Shown here in pieces: positions 1 through 61,532 of a stretch of 64,000 nt of DNA. The position numbers and the translations under genes are program-made. Origin of the DNA: Kondoa subrosea (taxonomy: Eukaryota); NCBI GenBank assembly GCA_039545335.1, contig BCIN01000006.1, forward strand, positions 1 through 64,000. The letters are read 5' to 3'. Each line of letters starts with the position of its first letter. The first letter of the stretch is position 1. The notes beneath the pieces are model-generated. The model was given only the letters and a program-made list of their open reading frames with translations. It did not search any database and had not been told where the DNA came from.

Positions 1-80
1 TAACTCTTCATAACTCTTCATAACTCTCGCTAACTCTTCATAACTCTCGCTAACTCTTCATAACTCTCGCTAACTCTTCG
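1..80 (+). repeat. Putative telomeric array of two 10-mer variants (TAACTCTTCA / TAACTCTCGC)
   Basis: Eight tandem 10-mers at the very start of the window, order A A B A B A B A'. The C-rich strand is at the 5' end, as expected for a left chromosome end. The G strand reads TTAGCGAGAG/TTATGAAGAG. Confidence 0.75.
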
Positions 81-1236
81 TGTATTGAGCAATCACTGAT
101 CTATCTTTGATCATTGTGATTGTCGCTCCAGAGTCTGCACAGAGTGTGTCAGAACGAGCAGGGAACAGTGAGGCACGACTTGCAGCTAGCATAGCTTGAG
201 GAGAATCTTCTTCTTCCTCTACTGCGATTCGAGCATGTTGAGCTGGTTTCTTTGCAGATTGAGATGACTTCTTTTTCTCATATTCAGCTTTCTTCTCCTC
301 AACAAAGTTCTTGATAGCAAAGCAGGTTTCTGTAGAATGACTTCCAGTGCCATGAAGCATACAACTCTTTCCATCCACCTTATCACCACCTTTCTTTTGC
401 TGCTGATTGCGACTTCGAACGAAAGCTTTGCTAGCTATTTCTTGTTTGACTACATCAGGCTTGAATCTTGGTTGTAAAGAAGCGTTCTGAAGTGAAGCGA
501 CAAGATGAGACATGGGTAGTTCTGATTGGATTGAGAGATTTGCAGAGAATGATTGGACTGTTTCGCTGTCAGAGTGACCAAGGGCATTAAGAACTGCGTA
601 TTTCTCTATTTCTTTGATGAATTCTCCAAGTGTAAGGGGTTCGTAGCGTTTCTGCGGATTTTGGGAAAGGAGCTGCATAGGATCTTCTGAAGGTTTCTTG
701 CAGGTAGCTAGAAGAACTTCAGACAGTTGTTTAGCTTTGGGCAGAAGGGCTGTGAGAGGTTCTTCGGCGTCATGAGAAAGGGAAAGAAGAGCAGAAATCG
801 CATTGAAGCGACCAGCTCCTGTTGGAAGAGCTCGTTGTCCTTTGAGGATATTGAGCGCATCGACTGGGTTGCGAATGCCACTAATCAAGGTAGCATGTTC
901 TGAGTCGATGTATTGACGAATGATACCAAGCGCCTTGTTATTTGCCTTTCGAAGTTCTTCTGGAGATCGCTCGAATGGTTCTTCAAAAAGATCTTGTACA
1001 TCGTTGAACAGGCACAAAGCGACTAGCTGATTCTCCCATTCTTGAAAATTTGTTTCTTGACCTCCGTTTCGAGAGAGAATGATTTTTCGATGTTTTGAAT
1101 CCTCAGACATGTTTGGTGTCCTTGCTGTTTGTTGCTGAGGAGTATGGTGTGAGTCAGATCTAGCGTAGAGGTCTGCAATGTGATTTGAGCTGTTTGCAGG
1201 AAGTGCAGATTGAACAGTTTTGATGTTCGTTCTTCA

Positions 1237-1249
1237 AGGGCTCATAACC
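1237..1249 (-). other. Primer-binding site complementary to the anticodon stem-loop of initiator tRNA-Met
   Basis: The minus strand reads GGTTATGAGCCCT, complementary to tRNA-iMet AGGGCUCAUAACC. This is the half-tRNA priming mode of Ty5 and Drosophila copia. Confidence 0.8.
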
Positions 1250-1526
1250 TTTCAAAAGCTGAACTCTTAGTAGATCAGAATATGACTTTGCAATATGAAT
1301 GTTCTACATTACCTGAACTCTTAGTAGATCAGAATATGACTGATCAAGAACAACAGAGTTCAGGTTTCTTATATACAGCCAAGTGGCAAGATATTCGATA
1401 CCTTTCCCTCTGGTGGGTTCGATCTGATTCGTTCCCAGGACTGCTGAGCCGCCTCGCGCGAGCTACCCAATCAGGTTTCAATCAACGATCGTCATATCAG
1501 GAAGGGAGGGAGTGTTAAGTGAGAAA
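1250..1526 (-). repeat. Putative 5' LTR of the copia element
   Basis: Adjacent to the PBS. Minus-strand TATATAAG at about 1368-1375. Internal 29-bp direct repeat CTGAACTCTTAGTAGATCAGAATATGACT at 1259-1287 and 1313-1341. The outer boundary is guessed from the TTTC...GAAA symmetry. Confidence 0.55.
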
Positions 1527-1719
1527 GCTTCCCAGCATGACAAGATGAGGAGAGATAGGAAAGATTGGGATAAGCGGATGTCTTTCCTCAGCAACGACTG
1601 AGCAGACATACCGCAGGTATGGGATGTAGATCGCGTATGCAATATAGCAACGACTGAGCAGACATACCGCAGTCCACATCTGCATACATAATGACACTCA
1701 GTACGAGTCGAACAAGACA
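1527..1719 (-). mobile_element. Probable LTR remnant of a second element, interrupted by the copia insertion
   Basis: Non-coding. Contains a 27-bp direct repeat AGCAACGACTGAGCAGACATACCGCAG (1590-1616 and 1646-1672). The minus strand begins TGTC at 1719. Confidence 0.35.
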
Positions 1720-2384
1720 TCAGGCCTAAACCTCACTTGTGAATTGCAGATAATCCATTTTGTGCTCCACTGTATTCTCTACCTGCTGCCATTCTTCAGC
1801 AAAATCGGGATCATTGCACCGTTCAGCGCCAATGTCGAATTGTCTGCGAGGTTTAGTGAAAAGACTCAAGCGCGACTTGACGGAAATCGTATTGCCAAAG
1901 ACAATCTGTTGCATGACCTGGACGTCTATGACTTCTACATCTTCTTCGATCCGATCCATCTCTTCACCTTCTTCATCTTCTTCCTCATCTGCCTCATCTT
2001 GAGCAGCTGGTGCTCGCACGAAAAGATCAGGTGCGAACTCGACCGAGTCAAGCGCGGAAAGCATGACATTTGTTGCGTTAGGCCGACTTCTATGCAAGCT
2101 TTCACTATACACATCTGGGTCTTCATTGAACCTGCGCAGCGCGGACTGCATGCTGCTTCAAAGTCGAGAAAGGTGTTGAGTCGGAACAAAAGGCAAAATC
2201 GTGCCAAGTCTCGATCACCCTCTGAGCGGCTGTCGGATCAATCCGCAGGGATCAGAGACATGTCTTTGCTGACATAAGCGCTCACGTCATCTTCGGAGAC
2301 TTTATGGGAAATGGTTTTTCAAGAGCTCGACATTTTCATTTGAAATAACCAGCCAAATAACCAGATGGTTTTTACCTATATAAT

Positions 2385-3240
2385 TGGTTGTCGCTGAGGG
2401 CGAGTTATTGAGACTGAATTCGACCAATGGGAGTAAATCAGCCCAATCGTCTTGTTCATAACCGATATAAGCGCGAAGAACTTGCTCCAAAGACTGATTC
2501 GCTCTTTCGGTTTGCCCATCAGTTTCAGGATGATAAGAAGTCGACATATTGAGCTTCGTGCCCGATCTAGCAAATAGTTCTTTCCAGAACGCAGAGGTAA
2601 AGCGAGGATCTCGATCTGAAACAATCGATAGCGGGAAACCATGCAAACTGATTACTCGCAGGAAAAGCAAAGCTGACTGTTTCGCATCGATTTCTTTATG
2701 ACACGGGAAGAGGTGAACCATTTTAGTGAAGCGGTCGACTATGGTAAAGATCGCATCGTAACCACTTGAAAGAGGTAAGTCCATGATGAAATCCATCGAA
2801 ACATCTTGCCAAGGTCCTTTTGGAGCAGGTAACGGCTGGATCTGACCACGAGGCTTGTGCGGACGATTCTTTGAGCGTTGGCAGATATCGCAGGAGCAGA
2901 TATACGCTCGAATGAATTCGCGCATTTTTGGGAAGTAAAAGTCGGAGACCACTAGATGTTCCGTTTTATCTTGTCCCAGATGTCCAGCCATATTCGAATC
3001 GTGTCTTTCCGTCAAGATTTCGATCCGTAGGTCATGGGTCGGAAGATATAAGCGCTTCGAATCTTTCCAAATCAACCCATCTTGATAAACCAAACCCTTC
3101 AAACTCGAACTAATTGCCCGGCTTCTGGGTAAGGTAGGGTCCTTGAGGTACGGTAGGTACTCCCAAGTATCATTCGCTTGAGCTAGGCGAACTTTTTGCA
3201 GTAGTTCATTGTTCCAGGATGAGGTAGAGATCGCATTCAC
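2385..3240 (-). mobile_element. Ty3/gypsy integrase fragment
   Basis: H2C2 zinc-binding region (HD...GHLG...CDICQ) and rve core with DDE residues (VSMDFI, SDRDPRFTS, HPETDGQTER). RT and RNaseH are absent, and similarity stops after NNSPSATT. Confidence 0.92.
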
Positions 3241-5959
3241 TTTTTGCGTAGGCCTCTTATTCTGAGCAGGACCGTACTCTTCTTTTGAGACTCAGACATG
3301 GTTTTATACGGATTAAGAGCTATTAGATGCCGCAGAAACAAAGTTTTTTGAGCAGGGTTTGACGACGTTTTGGTTACATTGAAATCTCCCTTATCGCTTA
3401 TCTTTCTTTTCTTTCAAAGTTTTCGGCCGGGACAGACTTGGGTCATTTCCCCGCTACACTTCGGCTTGAAGAATGTTGTTAAATCCGACTCTTGCTTAAA
3501 TCCGACTCCTGGCCAGGAGTCAGCCACAAGGCAGGAGTGGTGGCGGTCTGTTCTAACTTCCTCAAAGCCGTTGGATGTTGCTGAAGGCTCGGCTCTACCA
3601 GTGCCTAAAATGGTATGCGGGCTTGTGATCCTCTTCAATCCTTTCAAAGAGATCCGCATTATATCTGCATCAGCCTATTGAAGTCGCCCGGACCAAATAT
3701 TGGGGCAACTGCCACCTCTACTGTGCTCTACTAGGGATGTTCAAAGACCCCAGGGTTGTCAATATATGCGCGTAAGCGTATTGCCATGCCAGTGATGCTA
3801 AACATTTTTCTTGTCGCTATATCTAGGTGAATATTATACACCTATCGCTACAAGCTCTTGTGTTACGGCATGCATACTATACACACAGATCAAGGCCAAA
3901 AGATTGCCAAAGAAGCAACATTTGGCCTACTAATGACGCGTCGTGATTTGTTTACTCAAAGTCATTTTTCTCCCCGAGAAAAAAAGATCCAGCTTAGCGA
4001 GTAACAGTTCTGGACAGATCTCAATAGCCTCTAAAATACTGTACTATCGAAAATAGATTCGCGAAACCGAAAGAATTACCAAGTGAAGTAGCAAGCGGTA
4101 AAGCAGAAAGAAAGCCGATCACAGCTTGCCAAACAGTAGGTCTCGCTTCAAGTGCTCAGCTTCGGTCGAACGTCGCGTTCAAGCAAGCGCGAAGCAACAG
4201 CTGAGCATAAACAAGGCAGTCTGTCGAAATAGCAGAGCAGAAACCAGCGAGAGATGTTTTGGCAAAAGGTAAGAATGAGAGCCGGGGACAGCATGTGTTT
4301 AGAGTCTTGTATCGCAGCTTCAGTAGCGGTCCTTTTTTGACTGGTAGAAGTAGACCTGAGGGTAGGAGAAGCTGGCAGCAAGCATCTTTTACCAGTCGAG
4401 TAGAAAGGGAAAGAAAGGCGCGAAGTGTGCGTCAGCAAGCTTCAGAAAAATAGAGTGCAAGTGACCAGTGTCTCCAAGTCTTCTAAGGAGAAGTATCGGA
4501 GAAGTATTGAAGCAGTCGCTCAAATAGAGCAGTCAACAGTGAAAGGGCAAGTCGGTGTAGTTCAATCAAGGCCATGACAGCAGCAAGTAGTCTTCAGCCT
4601 CGAGCAATGCTTTCCTCTCGAGCCAAAGCTGTCAATCCAAGTAAGTCGCAAGCTTAGAAGCGTAGGGCGAGCTGGATTCGATCATTGTGGAAGCTTGGCA
4701 CAAGGGCGAAGAGTGGAGAGTGAATTCGAGCTTAAGCAAGCCAGTGGAAGTCTCAGTAGCAATCGAGGCAGATTCATTTGTGTAGATTGTATTATGATCA
4801 TGCTTGACTGTTGACGACTCTGTTCGCCAATAAGCAAGTTGCAGGAAGCCACCTCTTGCAGCTTGAAGCCAATCAATGGGTTGTCGAAACACGATGATCA
4901 CAAGCCTGCTAACTCGACCAGCTCTATCTCGCAAAAGGTGCAGCAGCTTCCGATATCTGACTACTGAAGTACCAGAGGCATTGATAGGTTCATGGGAAAG
5001 GATAGCTCCAAAACGGCAGCAGTATGAAGAGAAGTATGGGCAGGCGCTGGAAGCTGCGGCGAAGGCGTGAGCGAATCGATATTTGTCTTCGGTTCTTGTT
5101 CATCTAGATGTCAGGCTCGTCAAGCTGAGAAGTCAAGTCAACCAAACCAGCGAGCGGCGCTTCTAAGCTATCAAGCAACTCATCTCTGCAACAGGTACCT
5201 TCTGCTGTTGTAGCTCCTTCATTGCCGAGCATTGCCGAGCGAGATAGATCAGGGAGGAGCAAAAGCGGCATGAAGGTCAGCATAGCGCTCTGCGATTTCA
5301 GCCAAGCTCAAGGCATCTCAGCCTCAGTCGGCCATCATGGACCTACAAAAGCTTCTCACAAGGCACCCTGCATCTTCCGCTGAGGAGATTTCTGCCCTTT
5401 AGAGCTTGTCATGCTTCAGCCAAATCAACAGCGAAACTAGGCGCCCTCGTCCCAGTCGAAACCTACAGGCGAATGACTGCAATAGCTCGCGAGAATCTGC
5501 GCTTCATCATGCCTCTGCCTCGATAAACATCTGACGGAACCACTGGAGCGGAAAACAACTGTCTTGAATGGGCATTCGTTCCTTCTCCGTCAATCGTGCC
5601 AGCAGGCACATCAGAAACGAACATCGTTTTCTCTTTAGCCTTGTATAAGAGTCATGGTTCCCCTGCTCAGCCAGCTCTCATTCTAGCACGCTATACCGAT
5701 CTTGCTGTTCGAGGGAATCGTTATGCTTTGTTGCGAAATCGCAGAAGGTGATCTAGGATCTGGTCAGATGGTCTCAAATTGAGTACAAAGAGCTGCTTGA
5801 GATGGCCGGGCTGTCTCATAGCTTGAGGCGTCTTTCCTGCTCGTAACATTTAGCATTTCTCGCGTACTTCTGCTGCTATATTTGTAACATTTACTTGCTA
5901 GATGGCTCTGAGTTGAAAAGTAAATTCATGCTTGATTTGGGTGTGTTCTTAGCCCAGAT

Positions 5960-7197
5960 AGCTCTCCATGAAACACATCATTAAATACAATTCGTGTTCC
6001 GCTTGCTTGACCTTGTAGAAGAATAAGCCAAAGTTCGACCAGCAAGGGCTAGACTTACAAGTTTCTCGCCTTCTGAAGAATCAACTGACCGCATTGTGTG
6101 TTCCGCGCCTTCAACCAAGATAAGATGTGTAGTTGTACCAAGAGCGCGAAGCTTGTTATATGTATGAACTGAGTCTTCAGGCAGAACTGCGATAGCCCTT
6201 TGAGTGATGCGCGAGTAGAAGAAAAACGACGTACCCAGAGAATCTTCCTTGCCGTGCACTAGGTAGGTCGGAGGATATCGGTCAACGAAAAAGTCGGGAA
6301 AGATTGGGCGGAGATTTGGGTGAATTGTGCTCAGGCGGTCTTCCATAGGCATGGAAGCCAACCTAGAAGATATTGCTCGGCCAGAGAAGTGATCCAGATA
6401 AGTACCTTCTGCCATCCACTCTTTCATGTAATTGGTTGCAGTCAAGTTGAAGCGAGAATAAATGAGGGGAAAGGCTGCTTTGGTCCAATGATCGGTCAAA
6501 TGCATTCCCTGGTATCATACAGGTTAGCAAAATTTCGTCTTGACCGATTTAAAATATACCATTGCCCACATAAGACCCATGCAACATGGACGATGCTCTG
6601 CGTGTACTGCTGCAAGACGAGCGATATATCCACCAGCTGATTGTCCAGTGACTGGAATTTTCGTAAGATCGAGTAATTGACCATTGGGGAGGTGTTGAAG
6701 CATGCCGTCTTTGCGCGCAATGAAGGAAAAGAGAGCTTCGACATCCTGGACCATGTCGAAAGCAGTACAGTCTGGAAGCAAAGAATAGGTAGCAGAGATG
6801 AAAGCATAGCCATTCTTCATTGCCCGGTCTGCGTAGAGGTCAAAGAAAGCACACAATCCAAAAATCTGGATTCACCTAGCATCCAAGACGGGAAGTTATG
6901 TCTATCAGTGGCATCATGAGCATAGCGTAGTATGCGCTGAATTCAAGAAGGCTTACGCATCTTGCTTGTGCGAACCAAAGATCAAACCACCTCCGAACAT
7001 AAGTGAGCCTAGATACACCGTCTGACCTCACAGAACTCACCACCATGAAAGTATACTGCAGCAGACGGACTTAGATTGCATCATAGCTTGTCGTAAAGGA
7101 GCTCACTGAGTACAGGCAGTTGCTCTTTCACACTCTGTGGTAGGTAGAGATCTAGCGCTCTACCCTCGCGGTAAATTAAAGGAATGGGAGATGTCAT
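5960..7197 (-). CDS. Alpha/beta hydrolase (lipase/esterase, HSL-like), multi-exon
   Basis: Start MTSPIPLIYREGRALDLYLP, then VYFHGG, nucleophile motif GQSAGG, PTYLVHGKEDS and VEGAEH. The 3' end is approximate. Confidence 0.85.
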
Positions 7198-15728: not shown

Positions 15729-18700
15729 ATCCCAAGCTGGACCAAGTCAACTGAGCAGAACTATGAACACAGACGAATATGATTCAGGCAGCGAACAAAG
15801 TCCATCTTTCTCTATCTTCACTCCTTCTATCATCAACGTACCTCAACCATCCTCATCATCATTGGCTAGAAATCCTTCAGTTGAAAGACAGGCAGCCAGA
15901 TCTAACCTCATCCGCAAGTTATCGAAACGGGATGGTCCAGCAACGCCCACTGCACAGTCAGTCGCAGCAATTAACTCCCAGTCCGAATCGGAAACAGAAG
16001 TCATTTCAGATTTCCATGACTCTTCGCCGACTACACCTATAACCAATTCTTCGAACAACCGGACAACTGCAAAGCCTGCTTCCTCTTCTAGTCAGCAAAC
16101 AGCACAGTACCGATCAGATACTTCTAGTGCTGAACCTTCACCTACATCTACAGCATATACGCGTCCATCTTCCATCGCAACAGATGCACCTTCGGAATTT
16201 CGGCCTTACAGGCATACAATTGAAAGAGATAGGGATTCAGCTTTTGCTCAGTTGATGATGGAAGATCAATTTGAATACGCTTCAATACTCAATGGTAGGA
16301 AACCAAAGCACTTGGAGAGTGATGAAGAGGAGCAAGAAGTTTTGGATACACCTCAAGCCTCAAATTTACCGTCCAGAGGTTCTCCGAGACCTGCTTCGAA
16401 GCAAAGTAACCATAGCGCCAACGGAAACAGGAGTCGATCGTCTTCTTCTGCCTCTGCAAATGGCTTTGGGACGCCTTTGCAGCGTAATTCTTCAAGAGAA
16501 ATGAAACGGAATAAGCTATCGTTGGAGGAAATCAAGCCTTTCCCTGCTCCTAGCGCTTCTTATCAATTCCCTAGTCCGCCTCCAACTGCTCATGGCGATG
16601 ACGGGGAAAATAAGAATGGGAGGTTCTCGAATAGTGCAACAAGATCTGGCAGTGGCCTTGCTGCGCCCCCTTTGCACAGACATGGATCGAGCTCGGGCAT
16701 GTCAGATAATCGATCAAGGTTAGTGATGTGTTGCTGACGATCGATGAACGCTGATGCAGCTCCATACTGGCAGAAGCTCGAATAGCAAGAATCGTGATAC
16801 TGCAACTGATCGATCTGAATCTACTCGCTCTTCTAGTAATGGTTCCCATCAGACAGCAAATGGAGCATCCGGACGAGCATCTCATGCCTCTAATGCATCT
16901 CGATCATTTAAAAGTAGTTCAGGCTTTGAGTCGGAAGGCGAAGCTGGATCAGATCTCTCTGAGGAAGAAAATGATTGGGGTAGGCCTCTTCAACAAAGAC
17001 CTGGAGAGATTTCGACATCGACAGATTCAGCAACACGCAAAGCTATTCTAGCTAAATTCTCTTCTATCGTTGCTACCGCTCAACCCACTTTCAGCAAAAA
17101 CGAACTCGATATCCCTCCTCGAAGGTTGCTTATGCATGCTCCGGTGTTACAAGTTGTCAATGCTAATACAGTCAAAGATCGCTACCTTTTTCTGTTCAAC
17201 GATATTCTTGTCATCGCCAAAAGTATTGTCGAAGAAGATCCTGCCACTGGTCTTATGATTCCTCCATCACTAGAAACACGATTTCTCGTCAAGAGCATAA
17301 TAGAGCTGGATAAATTGAAGCTGACCGCCCAAAAAGAAGATGATCCAAACGCTGAGGATCAATCTCAAAAGAAGAAGCACTCACTTTTACAATCCTTCAT
17401 TGATCGATTCGCGAACGATCCAAAGAAAGCAATTGGCACTCTTGTATCTAAAGGCGGGTTGCAGAACGAGCCAATCACTATCGCCAATCTTCTGTTCCGT
17501 ACGACAGATCTCAATCGCTCCCAGCTTGGTGCTTTCCTCTGTAGAAAAGAAAACAAACATGTTCTCAAGGCTTACGTTGATCGGTTCCGACTGACCGGTC
17601 TGAAAATAGAAGATGCGCTTCGAGTTTTCATCGCATCTTTGCGATTGCCCAACGACCCTACAGCAGCAGAGTACCTGTTAGTCATCTTTGGTTCCGTGTA
17701 TGTTACACTCAATCAGGGAAGCGGTATGGAACAAGCGATGTGTGGCAAGCTAGTCATGGCGATGATGGAGTTGAACGATTACCTGCATTCGGGGATGGAC
17801 GAAGAGACAGGAACAATGGGTAATCTCTTTGGTTTCCCTAACCCAGCAATCACCGTGGACGACTTCATGGGTGCATTCCGTTCCAAAGATCCTAAATTCC
17901 AAGTACCGGATGCTACTTTGACTCGAGTTTATATGTCAATCAAGAGAGAACGAGTGCAGCAAGCTGCAGATAACTCCATAGCGGGAATGGCACCTGAAAT
18001 ACCAGTAACCCTCAATCCAGCTCGATTGCCCTCGCGTCTCACCTATCGCATTCCGTCAGAGGAAATTACCGTATCAATACCTCAAGCGGATCCACGATTT
18101 CAAGTCAAGCTATTGGGCAACGACGCAAAATTTGAGCCCAGTGTCCTCAACTTTGCCAAATCGCGCACACAGACATTCCGCATGATTGGAACAGCTTTGG
18201 GTCACAAGAATGTAGTTCTGCTTCGAGCAGGTAGCCATGCAACTTTTTACACGGGTTTGCCAGTCAACAAGACCTTTATCGTCGAGCGGGTGAGGTGACT
18301 CTGTCTTGGCTCTAGATCACGCTGATCAGATACAGGCTTTCATGCGCTATACTTTTCAATTGGCTTTCGTCAATCACCTAGCTGTCAAACGGAAATATAT
18401 GTTCTCAATGTCGGATCTCGACTTGCGCGATAATTGGCTTTCTTGCCTGCGAGCCGGCGTAGAAAACGCGATAGCTGGTCTGGCAGCTCCGAGCGCGATA
18501 TCAAAGAACCATCGGATCGCAAATGCTGTCGCTCTGCAAGTACTTCGAGATGCTCTCATTGCGCCTGAAGAAATGAATGCTGGTACGGCATTGAGCAGTA
18601 CAAGCTTCACGCCTGCTACGCGTAATGGTCGACATACATCCCCCGCCAATGCTCGCCCCGGTCATGTCCGGTCTAATTCTTTCAGCAAGACATATGCCTT

Positions 18701-26047: not shown

Positions 26048-26117
26048 TGCAAGAGATTGGCGAGATTAATCTCTTATCACCGTGCAAGAGATTGGCGAGA
26101 TTAATCTCTTATCACCG
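26048..26117. promoter_or_regulatory. Perfect 35-bp tandem duplication upstream of guanine deaminase, containing GATAAG and a 12-bp palindrome
   Basis: TGCAAGAGATTGGCGAGATTAATCTCTTATCACCG occurs at 26048-26082 and 26083-26117. Each copy has GAGATTAATCTC and CTTATC. Confidence 0.6.
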
Positions 26118-48780: not shown

Positions 48781-50523
48781 TCACAGAACCAAACCAGCAG
48801 TCTTCAGCTGTTTCTTCAGCAAGACTGAAAGAATGGCTTCAGCATACATAATTGCGCATCAGAAGATCCCAACCGTACAAGCTGTGATATCATTTATGCA
48901 TTTCTTCATCCCACTCGAATCGCTGAATTGGATTTGATCAGCTTGGCAAAGTAGCTAGAGATTAGACTCACGTAGCCTGAGTAAAATGACAGAAGAAGTT
49001 GGACTTATTCTCTTCTTTGACCACAGCGAGAAACTTCTTTCGAAAGAATCGTTTGACTTGTTCATAATCTATATCGGAGCCTGTCAGGTCGAACGGCCTT
49101 TTAGCTCAATATTGAGCACTCAAACTACCTCAAACTGACCTTCATAGTCTGGAAAGTACTGCTTTACGGAAGCTTTCGGTAGTTTCTCCTTTAGCTGAAA
49201 GAAGCTTCAGCTTGAAAGAAAAAGCAATACACAAAAATGAAACTGACGAGATCGACTTTGTTCAAGAAAAGAATATGTGCAGACTTTGCAAACAACTTAG
49301 AGTTCACACTGTGAGCGGAGCAAAGCAGAAAATAAGTATTAGGAATGCTTGTAACATAATGACTAACACCGAGTCGTACACTACGAAAAACAGATCAGCT
49401 TGACAGTAAGAGCACAAGAGACTGCGGGTATACCTTCTAAGGCTTCTTCTATCCTAGGCTTGTTTGCATCTTCCCTTATCCGTTGATCGTATTCCGATAT
49501 TGAAGCGATAAAAAGCAGAACGTCGACATTCTCGAAGCCTATAAGCAAATCAGAGGTATCGAGAAGTGTGTTCGATGCTCATACAATGAATCCTGTCAGG
49601 GACCGAGTCAGAATAGAATGTTTGAAACAAGGTCAGAGACAAACTAACCATTTTCGCCTTTCTGATCTCTGGCCGCCGCAATCAAAGACATGCAGTTTCA
49701 GACCGCCAACATCTGGGAAGAAGACTTCTACTATTCCTCTATTCAAATGAACGAATGGGCATTGCAATTCATGGCTGTACAGACAAAACATACGTTGTCT
49801 TTATTCGGGATTTGATGATGTCCATATCAGTTGGAATGTAATGATAGTCTTCCTTGTCCACAAAGCGATCGATCCTTTCGATAAAGTACGTTGCGCTAGT
49901 GAAACTGGCGATGAGCCTCGGCATCCGAGTGTCAAGTAAATGCTAACCTGTCATTCAGCTGATACTCACTTCTCCGCGATATTGCCAACTGTACAGCCGT
50001 CTCTTTATATAGGATTGATATAGCTTTAGCCGTCTCATCGTCCAAATGATCTACTGTATCTTCTCTTCCGCGATCTTGCAACAAGCGAGCGTACTCTTGA
50101 CTAACGGAATCTGATAACTTGATGCCCATGATATCCATAGCGTCGAGAATACATTGCATAGATTGAAGTGTGTTGGCTAGAACGACTTCTCGATATTCAG
50201 CTCGTTCTGCTTCTGGTAGTGGGCCAAGATGCATGAATCGCATTTGTTTCAGCACAGTGGATCTATCTAAATCTATCAGACATTCTCCACCGTTTCCTGT
50301 TTACACCTACTTTCCAGATTCCCCGGCTCCAAGAAGTAAAGTTTTGATTACTATATTGAAGTCGCGTCAGATTGGATCTCGATTAAGCAGGACAAATCTT
50401 ACCCGTCTTCTGCTGTAACGCATCCTGCTTGAGCTTCTCATCTATACTGCGACTTCTTTTTGCAGGAGTAAGTGTTAGACTTTGTGTGTCTTCGGCCAAA
50501 TCTTTCGATGCTATACAACCCAT
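48781..50523 (-). CDS. Heterotrimeric G-protein alpha subunit (copy 1)
   Basis: MGC N-terminus, LLLGAGESGK|STVLKQM, SRIKTT, DCGGQRSERRKW, FLNKVD. Confidence 0.92.
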
Positions 50524-50970: not shown

Positions 50971-53278
50971 CTAAATCTACCCGTATCAATTTTAAGAAGC
51001 GTGCAGTAGGTTTTTGCAAACAACTTACGAGACCGGTGATTTCCAGGTGGTATTTAACCAGAGCTGCAAAGCTTTGATTTAGCCAAGCCTTAAACTGGGG
51101 CATCAAGAGAGCATACTGTCTGTTACCGCAGTGATGACCTTGCTCATTGCAGTTGTATCCCTAATGCATGTTCAGCTTGTACCTCTGTCAACGGAACAGA
51201 TGAGCTTACGTTGCGGATGTAAAACTGCAAGATCGTCAGAACAGATCGACCGCCATACTGTGAAGGCAAGAGACACTGACTGTACATAGATTTGGCGTTC
51301 CTTCTGCATCATTAAAAGCATATCAATACCAAATACACATCGGAACAGATGAAGCTCACGTCTTGTACTAGTCCGGTAAACATTTTTCGGAAGAAGCGAG
51401 CTACTTGATCGAAGTCTTGCGGATCGCCTGTGCTTGGAAAGTGAGACGGATATACAATGGTGTATATAATAGACGAACCGTTGTACTCTGGAAAATACTT
51501 TTGTAACGGTGATTTCGGCAGCTTTTCACGTAACTGAAGATACTACTTTCAGTAGCTTCAGTGGCTGATGTGCGAATGGACTGACCAGATCACACTTGTT
51601 CAAGAAGAGCTACGCCTGTTGTCAGAGACTATCCGGCCGAAATCAAGGCAAACATACTATTTGAGCACTCTTTGCGAACCACTTGCTGTTCACACTACAA
51701 GGTCTTCAGTCAGATGAGGAATGAAGAGCAGAGGGAGGAAGTACATGGCTTCATATACTGCGAGTACGAAGAAACTTTCCCAATGAGCAATATCTCACCG
51801 GGTGCTAGTTCAACTCACCCAGTAAAGCTTCCGCTATTCGTGGATGTTCCGTATCTTCGCGCTTGATCAAATGTTCAGACTAACCCTATCAAATTGAAAA
51901 ATACACATACCAAAGTCATATCATACTCTGCTATACTGACCAAGAACAGCATAACATTGACATCTTGGAAGCCTTTCAACAAAATCAGTTATGGAAATGA
52001 CGCGCTTCGAGAATTCGCACAATGTATCCCTGTGAGAGCAATTCCTCTGCATCAGCAATCATACTGCACGACGCAAAAGGAAACCCACATTTCTTTCGTT
52101 CCGATCTCTGTCCGCCAACGTCTAGAACTCTGAAAGGCATTCCTCCACTATTGCTGCTCATCAGGCAAAATCCTAAGTAAGGGCACAAGGCTTACACATT
52201 CGGGAAGAAGACTTCGACAATTCCGCTACAAGCCATATTTAGTTGGTTTCTTCCTTAGGATAAAGCACGCACGTAGTCTTGATTCTCGCTTTGATGATAT
52301 CCATATCGCTTGGAATATAGCGATATTCTGGAGGATGATCAACGAATCGATCCACGCTGTCGAAGAAGTACGTTGCGCTGTAGAATACATCCAAATGTCC
52401 TCAGCCTTCCATAAGGCTAAGATTGACAGCATGACCTACCTATCATTCAGTTGATACTCATTCGTCCTGCTTATCGCAATCTGAACAGCTTCTTGCTCTT
52501 TCAATACCTTCACAGCGTTCTTGAGTCTTTCGTCAAAGATCGCGCTACCCACATCTCTAGAAAGACTTTGTAGAAGAGTAGCGTATTCTAAAGCTGTTGG
52601 ATCAGTGATTTTCAGCTCCATCCATTCTGCTGCATCGAGAATGGATTGCATGGATTGAATAGTGTTGGTGAAGATGATTTCTTTGTATTCGATCCGTTCG
52701 TGTTCAGGTAGACCTCCGAGATGGATCAGCTGTGCCAGGCACACGCGATCAATTAAGCTCATGAGCTTTAACAATCTTGCGAAGCCGCACCTTCATTTGC
52801 TTCAGTACAGTAGATCTGTACGGACGGAATTCAGTAAGCTCTAGCGAGCGCAATGAATCCATCTACGTACTTTCCAGATTCTCCTACGCTTACCAAATCA
52901 GTATCGTTCGACCGTATCAAGAGGAAGTCAAGACGAACCAGCACCAAGCATGAGCACTATATCTTTAAATGAGTATCTCGCACTTTATCACGGGCTGAAT
53001 GACATTACTCTTGATAACTAGCCGTTCCGTTAAATTCAGCTCATTTTTGACAGCCCTTGTCTAAAAACTCACCTTTTCTTTCTTTCTGACCATCTCTTTT
53101 CAACTCGGCATCCCTGTACGAAGCAAACAGCACTAAGCAAACTTTTCCGCATAAACGTGAGCGGGAATTGGGGGATGTGCACGGACAAGCGTTTAGAGTG
53201 CTTCGAAGGATCTAAAACTGTTGTACTACTGCTCGAATTGCTAGTAGCTATCTGCTCTTTAGAAGGATTGCAGCCCAT
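50971..53278 (-). CDS. Heterotrimeric G-protein alpha subunit (copy 2)
   Basis: MGC N-terminus, VLMLGAG..ESGK, ARIKTT, DVGGQRSERKK, HFTSATDT. Confidence 0.9.
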
Positions 53279-57831: not shown

Positions 57832-57910
57832 CAACAAGCAAGCTCGTTCGTTTCTCCTCCGCCAGAATCCCCAACAAGCAAGCCGTTCGTTTCTCCTCCG
57901 CCAGAATCCC
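57832..57910. repeat. About 40-bp tandem duplication
   Basis: CAACAAGCAAGC(T)CGTTCGTTTCTCCTCCGCCAGAATCCC twice, with a 1-nt indel. Confidence 0.85.
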
Positions 57911-61492: not shown

Positions 61493-61532
61493 GATTATTA
61501 TCGTATTTGTATGATTATTATCGTATTTGTAT
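61493..61532. repeat. Perfect 20-bp tandem duplication
   Basis: GATTATTATCGTATTTGTAT twice. Confidence 0.9.

Follow-up and report, generated by a model that had tools for sequence, protein, structure and literature searches.

The first 80 nucleotides of the 64-kb stretch of DNA analyzed here, to which we refer as the window, are very probably a native telomere repeat forming the inner part of a true chromosome end. The whole reading at which we arrived, in which a compound 20-nt telomere is copied from a single, internally repeated template with slippage and caps a healed break, stands about an even chance of being right, and its mechanism is one that we infer. More tentatively, a lineage of Pucciniomycotina may have swapped the ancestral TTAGGG for a GG-free 20-nt repeat together with a long telomerase RNA template that slips by half-units.

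Structure and position of the repeat

The array consists of eight 10-nt units, with A=TAACTCTTCA, B=TAACTCTCGC and, next to the unique DNA that starts at position 81, A'=TAACTCTTCG (Table 1). On the forward strand the two halves of the compound unit have a 7-nt core, TAACTCT, in common and carry a 3-nt spacer that is either TCA or CGC; A and B are mismatched at all of positions 8 to 10 and identical elsewhere. Read on the outward strand, the compound unit runs core AGAGTTA, spacer GCG, core AGAGTTA, spacer TGA. Tandem Repeats Finder reported a period of 10 over 1-79 (7.9 copies, 75% matches) and a period of 20 over 11-79 (3.5 copies, 100% matches, score 138), so both the sequence and this program bear out the two-variant 10-nt array described in an earlier note on this DNA. 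The two-core pattern TAACTCTNNNTAACTCT, allowing at most one mismatch, matched seven times in the 64-kb window, every time inside 1-77, against 0.01 matches expected by chance, and none of 100 shuffles attained seven. The 13-mers that cross the A and B spacers were confined to the array within the same window.

The earlier note had also pointed to the order of the units, in which AA is present and BB absent. The counts are correct (one AA and no BB over seven junctions), but the absence of BB carries little weight because 20 of the 56 possible arrangements of three B among eight units lack a BB pair by chance. An alternating run of seven or more units is found in 2 of the 56 arrangements, and the 20-nt periodicity is mildly non-random. 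The perfect 20-nt periodicity and the regular alternation favor one templated compound 20-nt unit. Since A and B are distinguished by three adjacent bases, misincorporation at one position cannot interconvert them, and both must be either templated or copied. The sole A-A pair is the outermost part of the array as assembled. Slippage could have produced it by adding a half-unit, or it could be an assembly-end error; no contig matched exactly across it in the 16 pieces examined of 991, and the pair is thus taken from the assembly alone.

Table 1. Features of the window, with their coordinates, strand and basis
Feature	Coordinates	Strand	Basis or remark
Probable telomeric array, eight 10-nt units	1..80	-	Forward strand is the C-strand; order A A B A B A B A'
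Sole A-A pair, distal end of assembled array	1..20	-	Sequence
Compound 20-nt unit (A+B), three perfect copies	11..70	-	Tandem Repeats Finder
Junction unit A' (TAACTCTTCG)	71..80	-	Overlaps final codons and stop of the gag-protease frame
Putative copia-like gag-protease frame, 346 aa	70..1110	-	Open reading frame; Atlas lead
Overlapping 9-12-nt low-complexity repeats	1961..1999		Tandem Repeats Finder
Ty3-type retrotransposon integrase fragment	2302..3291	-	PF17921 5e-19, PF00665 1.7e-9
BD-FAE-type esterase	5984..6871	-	Split by an intron or frameshift
Sec7 frame	16748..18295		Used for host placement
G-protein alpha frame	49935..50300	-	Profile positions 34-142
G-protein alpha frame	52439..52792	-	Profile positions 42-139
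Two-copy tandem duplication, 35 bp	26048..26117		Perfect or near-perfect
Two-copy tandem duplication, 39 bp	57832..57910		Perfect or near-perfect
Two-copy tandem duplication, 20 bp	61493..61532		Perfect or near-perfect
Other genes: HLH factor, Sec7 protein, histone deacetylase, SMC4, ammonium transporter, CDP-diacylglycerol synthase

The composition and placement of the array point to a chromosome end. Over its 80 nt the outward strand, read 5' to 3' on the minus strand, holds 29 A, 27 G, 20 T and 4 C; it is G-rich and C-poor in the manner of a telomere, yet contains no GG dinucleotide, which is atypical of telomerase products, though yeast cases exist. The array begins at the first base of the window, and no unique DNA lay distal to it in the contigs examined, which represent one sample. 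They are Logan contigs, amounting to about 19 million letters in either of two public runs, X1 and X2, which come from one sample of one study. The runs contain 0.92 and 0.91, respectively, of the words sampled from window 1-6000, and they may underlie the assembly itself, so they are not independent support. Contigs rather than reads were aligned to window 1-3000, which gave 884 records for X1 and 107 for X2. In each run a 1553-nt contig spans 51-1603 with no differing letter and stops within the array, and the junction between array and unique DNA is therefore real in the reads.

The summed word depth of bin 1-100 was 232768 in X1 against 183.9 in the adjacent DNA, and 86346.8 against 56.1 in X2. 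Depth on the repeat thus exceeds that of neighboring DNA more than 1000-fold, as a sum over contigs that is not a copy number, and the repeat is clearly highly multi-copy. Twelve of the 16 contig pieces examined were 45 to 60 nt long and lay on the array, so the bulk of the remaining records probably lie there too. Among the loose ends listed, those behind places 59, 66 and 77 lead into three distinct unique sequences; the repeat accordingly adjoins at least three other unique flanks, all on the same side. Several ends, though not necessarily all, thus carry the same repeat, and it always faces the same way with respect to unique DNA. One loose end before the array was among those listed (place 8), and its 18 nt are repeat-like. 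Taken together, the polarity, the junction contigs, the very high summed depth and the three or more same-side flanks uphold the view in the earlier note that this is a terminal, telomere-like array.

Two observations concern variation within the repeat. In the place-8 record, which comes from X2, the array is extended outward by shortened 7-nt units that lack three of the A-unit bases; these could reflect either an uncommon form of the telomere or an error of sequencing. Furthermore, 635 of the 884 X1 records were less than 99% alike to the array, which may mean that the real telomeres are more heterogeneous than the clean 20-nt unit, or may reflect error k-mers at high depth.

Host and comparison with known telomeres

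Placement of the host drew on two of the genes in the window. The Sec7 frame has metagenome relatives at 84% and 73% identity, and its best named matches are Cystobasidium minutum (58%), Sporobolomyces salmoneus (49%) and Mrakia frigida (41%). A search with the N-terminal part of SMC4 confirmed Basidiomycota, with about 20% of the query aligned and no resolution at the level of class. Judging from these sequences, the host is probably a Pucciniomycotina yeast whose nearest relative among named genomes is Cystobasidium, and it perhaps belongs in Cystobasidiomycetes, a class-level placement that comes from one gene. The contig totals put its genome at about 19 Mb.

In the parts of the sources covered here, most Basidiomycota typically have TTAGGG, while TTTAGGG and TTAGG occur as variants (PMC7857110), and 21 basidiomycetes carry mostly TTAGGG, with TTAGGA and TTAGTG in Malassezia (PMC10100673). 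Within Pucciniomycotina, the portions consulted give TTAGGG for Rhodotorula and TTAGG for Rhodosporidiobolus (PMC12800127), and TTAGGG-like repeats are presented as the basidiomycete norm (PMC13234504). Telomeric repeats are mentioned for Microbotryomycetes assemblies, with no motif in the text covered (PMC13082103). The repeat is therefore unusual in a host that belongs to the basidiomycetes, where TTAGGG-like repeats prevail; the Sec7 and SMC4 matches and the covered parts of these papers (PMC7857110, PMC10100673, PMC13234504) thus agree with the earlier note, which had proposed both a probable basidiomycete and an unusual telomere for it. The array resembles canonical basidiomycete telomeres in that it is found in the same phylum, has the same polarity and keeps a TTA start, but unlike in those telomeres, both half-units depart from TTAGGG by more than a single base.

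Likenesses are also found outside the phylum. The telomere unit of Yarrowia, for example, is 10 nt long. Like the repeats of ascomycete yeasts, the array has a unit much longer than 6 nt that is not simply G-rich, retains a TTAG-like remnant (TTAGCG against TTAGGG), and sits at a chromosome end with its C-poor strand outward; it is unlike them in its basidiomycete rather than Saccharomycotina host, in its compound half-units with a 7-nt core, and in its lack of GG. Mixed variant repeats made from one template are known from ciliates, Plasmodium and plants, and irregular repeats from budding and fission yeasts; for the most part these variants are set apart by a single base or by the length of the unit, and effects of alignment register have been proposed for them. 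The present array, too, intermixes two kinds of unit, but these differ at three adjacent bases and alternate regularly. For ascomycete yeasts in general, the sections covered describe long or complex telomerase-templated repeats with units of 8 to 27 nt (PMC7857110, PMC10100673).

A second comparison is with Microstromatales yeasts, in which, in the part of the paper covered, TERT and Tpp1 are absent and the motifs measure 41-132 bp and are mostly specific to one chromosome end (PMC13234504). The likeness lies in a basidiomycete yeast of about 17-21 Mb with no TTAGGG at the end examined. The difference lies in the unit, which here is 10/20 nt long and common to several ends rather than 41-132 bp and end-specific. 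A motif pattern of the Microstromatales type, as far as that source was covered, is rejected for the array on the basis of this unit length and of the three or more other flanks that carry the same repeat (PMC13234504).

We also looked for the repeat elsewhere. A metagenome scan with the three-core pattern TAACTCTNNNTAACTCTNNNTAACTCT returned at least 119 loci, and the mix of TCA and CGC spacers was present in 0 of the 119 loci listed; all of the listed loci were unrelated 10-nt minisatellites and were rejected as relatives. In one of them (L070, 948-987), TAACTCTCGC occurs four times within a long, degenerate "TAACTTTCGC/CAACTT..." minisatellite. This array was rejected as a telomere, as it is internal to a 9.3-kb metagenome contig and resembles unit B by chance. 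As expected, the exact A-B-A 27-mer had no match in contigs of prokaryote genomes. Four 17-mers across two cores did not occur in the literature searched, and among the papers listed for them both 10-mers were found, judged by titles and abstracts, only as unrelated primer-like strings. The literature searched, in the parts covered, yielded no paper on the telomeres of Cystobasidiomycetes or Cystobasidium.

Possible origins of the compound unit

The repeat suggests that the telomerase template has changed in this lineage. In the likeliest mechanism, a single telomerase RNA would have a template longer than 20 nt, and hence the core would be present in it two or three times. After each round the chromosome's 3' end, ...AGAGTTA, would usually pair again with the template's 3' end, and a full B+A unit would be added; occasional realignment at an internal core would contribute just one A half-unit, so that AA would arise and BB never. 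The earlier note had proposed such a scheme, with one 27-nt template and two alignment registers. Telomerase, the template length and the realignment registers are parts of this proposal that we infer. The slippage model alone leaves the dominance of full units unexplained: the common core is just 7 nt, so both registers pair equally well (7 bp). In the 64-kb window no template-like copy of the repeat was found elsewhere, an Rfam scan gave 0 matches, and TERT was absent among the 84 frames scanned.

An ALT-like mode of maintenance, in which recombination or rolling-circle copying takes the place of telomerase, is an unlikely alternative with a basidiomycete precedent in the Microstromatales yeasts without TERT described in the covered part of PMC13234504. 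A repeat without G runs would suit such copying, as would a very high summed depth, which could reflect long arrays, and a higher-order 20-nt periodicity, which is typical of copied arrays. However, the motifs described for Microstromatales in the text covered are 41-132 bp long and mostly specific to single ends, whereas the unit here is 10/20 nt (PMC13234504), and three or more further unique sequences border on the repeat. The array also directly adjoins a truncated retroelement, with possible microhomology, as in telomerase healing, and its unit retains a TTAG-containing, TTAGGG-like half (TTAGCG).

It is improbable that A and B are added independently by a telomerase with two 10-nt templates, whether from two RNA genes or alleles or from one RNA with two templates. 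The equal length of A and B, their common 7-nt core, the existence of an AA pair and the many variant contigs on the array would all be in keeping with two templates. Such a telomerase, however, predicts runs of both kinds, BB included, without strict alternation, and against this stand the 100% 20-nt periodicity across 3.5 copies and the observed 7-unit alternation, which only 2 of 56 arrangements show and which, in so small a sample, is weak evidence.

We likewise consider it improbable that the real telomere (perhaps of TTAGGG type) lies beyond the array, which would then be an artefact of the assembly end or a 10-nt satellite, subtelomeric or dispersed, where assembly came to a halt. The assembled array is just 80 nt, short-read contigs cannot span such arrays, and a summed depth of more than 1000 times that of unique DNA, although no copy number, exceeds what would be expected for short fungal telomeres. 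Against a satellite or artefact, the three listed unique flanks all lie on one side of the repeat and none on the opposite side, the listed loose end outward of the array also consists of repeat-like sequence, and the array has the polarity of a telomere in a window with no TTAGGG dimer. A chance or purely local repeat is disfavored by the polarity, the junction, the summed depth and the three or more other unique flanks, and a canonical TTAGGG-type telomere is excluded for this array by its 10-nt units and by the window, in which a TTAGGG dimer is absent even with one mismatch allowed.

Basidiomycete telomeres are treated as uniformly TTAGGG-like, with one documented exception in the source as covered, the Microstromatales, which lost telomerase (PMC13234504). 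If the single internally repeated template is correct, a short compound 10/20-nt repeat shared among ends would mark the second departure from the TTAGGG-like pattern among basidiomycetes, with a different mechanism, and the first long, complex telomere repeat made by telomerase in Basidiomycota. It would parallel the diversification seen in budding yeasts and would imply co-evolved telomere-binding proteins, giving an independent case of joint change in the telomerase RNA template and in the proteins that bind telomeric duplex and single-stranded DNA. How an internally repeated template sets the alignment register would become apparent as well. Pipelines that seek TTAGGG would score this assembly as without telomeres.

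Junction, subtelomere and neighboring genes

The inner end of the array runs into a 346-aa reading frame whose C terminus reads ...CADSGATITMIKDRSVIAQYTKS and whose stop codon lies within unit A'. The protein Atlas places this frame beside copia-type gag and Pol_BBD clusters (score 0.95, a lead only); it matched no Pfam family at E<=10, and sequence search gave no longer homologues. Near its end is a DSGAT motif, which we take to be the active site of a retroviral-type protease. On this reading, the rest of pol, beyond the start of the protease, is absent because the array begins there. The array truncates the copia-like frame, in keeping with a retrotransposon that broke and whose broken end would have been healed by the addition of repeats. 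The chromosome end would then have arisen by breakage within the copia-like element and de novo addition of repeats; the last bases of the retroelement resemble the A unit, and the point of addition is thus ambiguous within about 8 nt.

The subtelomere is made up of retrotransposon remnants, namely this copia-like frame and a Ty3-type integrase fragment (Table 1). Contig depth across the remnants is about that of neighboring DNA (183.9 and 189.5 in X1), so they are diverged and effectively single-copy. The low-complexity repeats that overlap one another at 1961-1999 coincide with extra contig depth and with loose ends at 1963, 1968 and 2000; this short motif is common to other loci in the genome.

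Farther in, a profile scan of the window's frames found ordinary intron-containing nuclear genes, and the G+C content of the window is 46%. The first ordinary gene is the BD-FAE-type esterase, about 6 kb from the end, and no long subtelomeric repeat block lies between it and the end. Perfect or near-perfect two-copy tandem duplications occur at three places in the window, with copies of 20 to 39 bp. The two G-protein alpha frames, separated by about 2.5 kb, correspond to one and the same stretch of the profile and, judging from sequence, look like a tandem gene pair.
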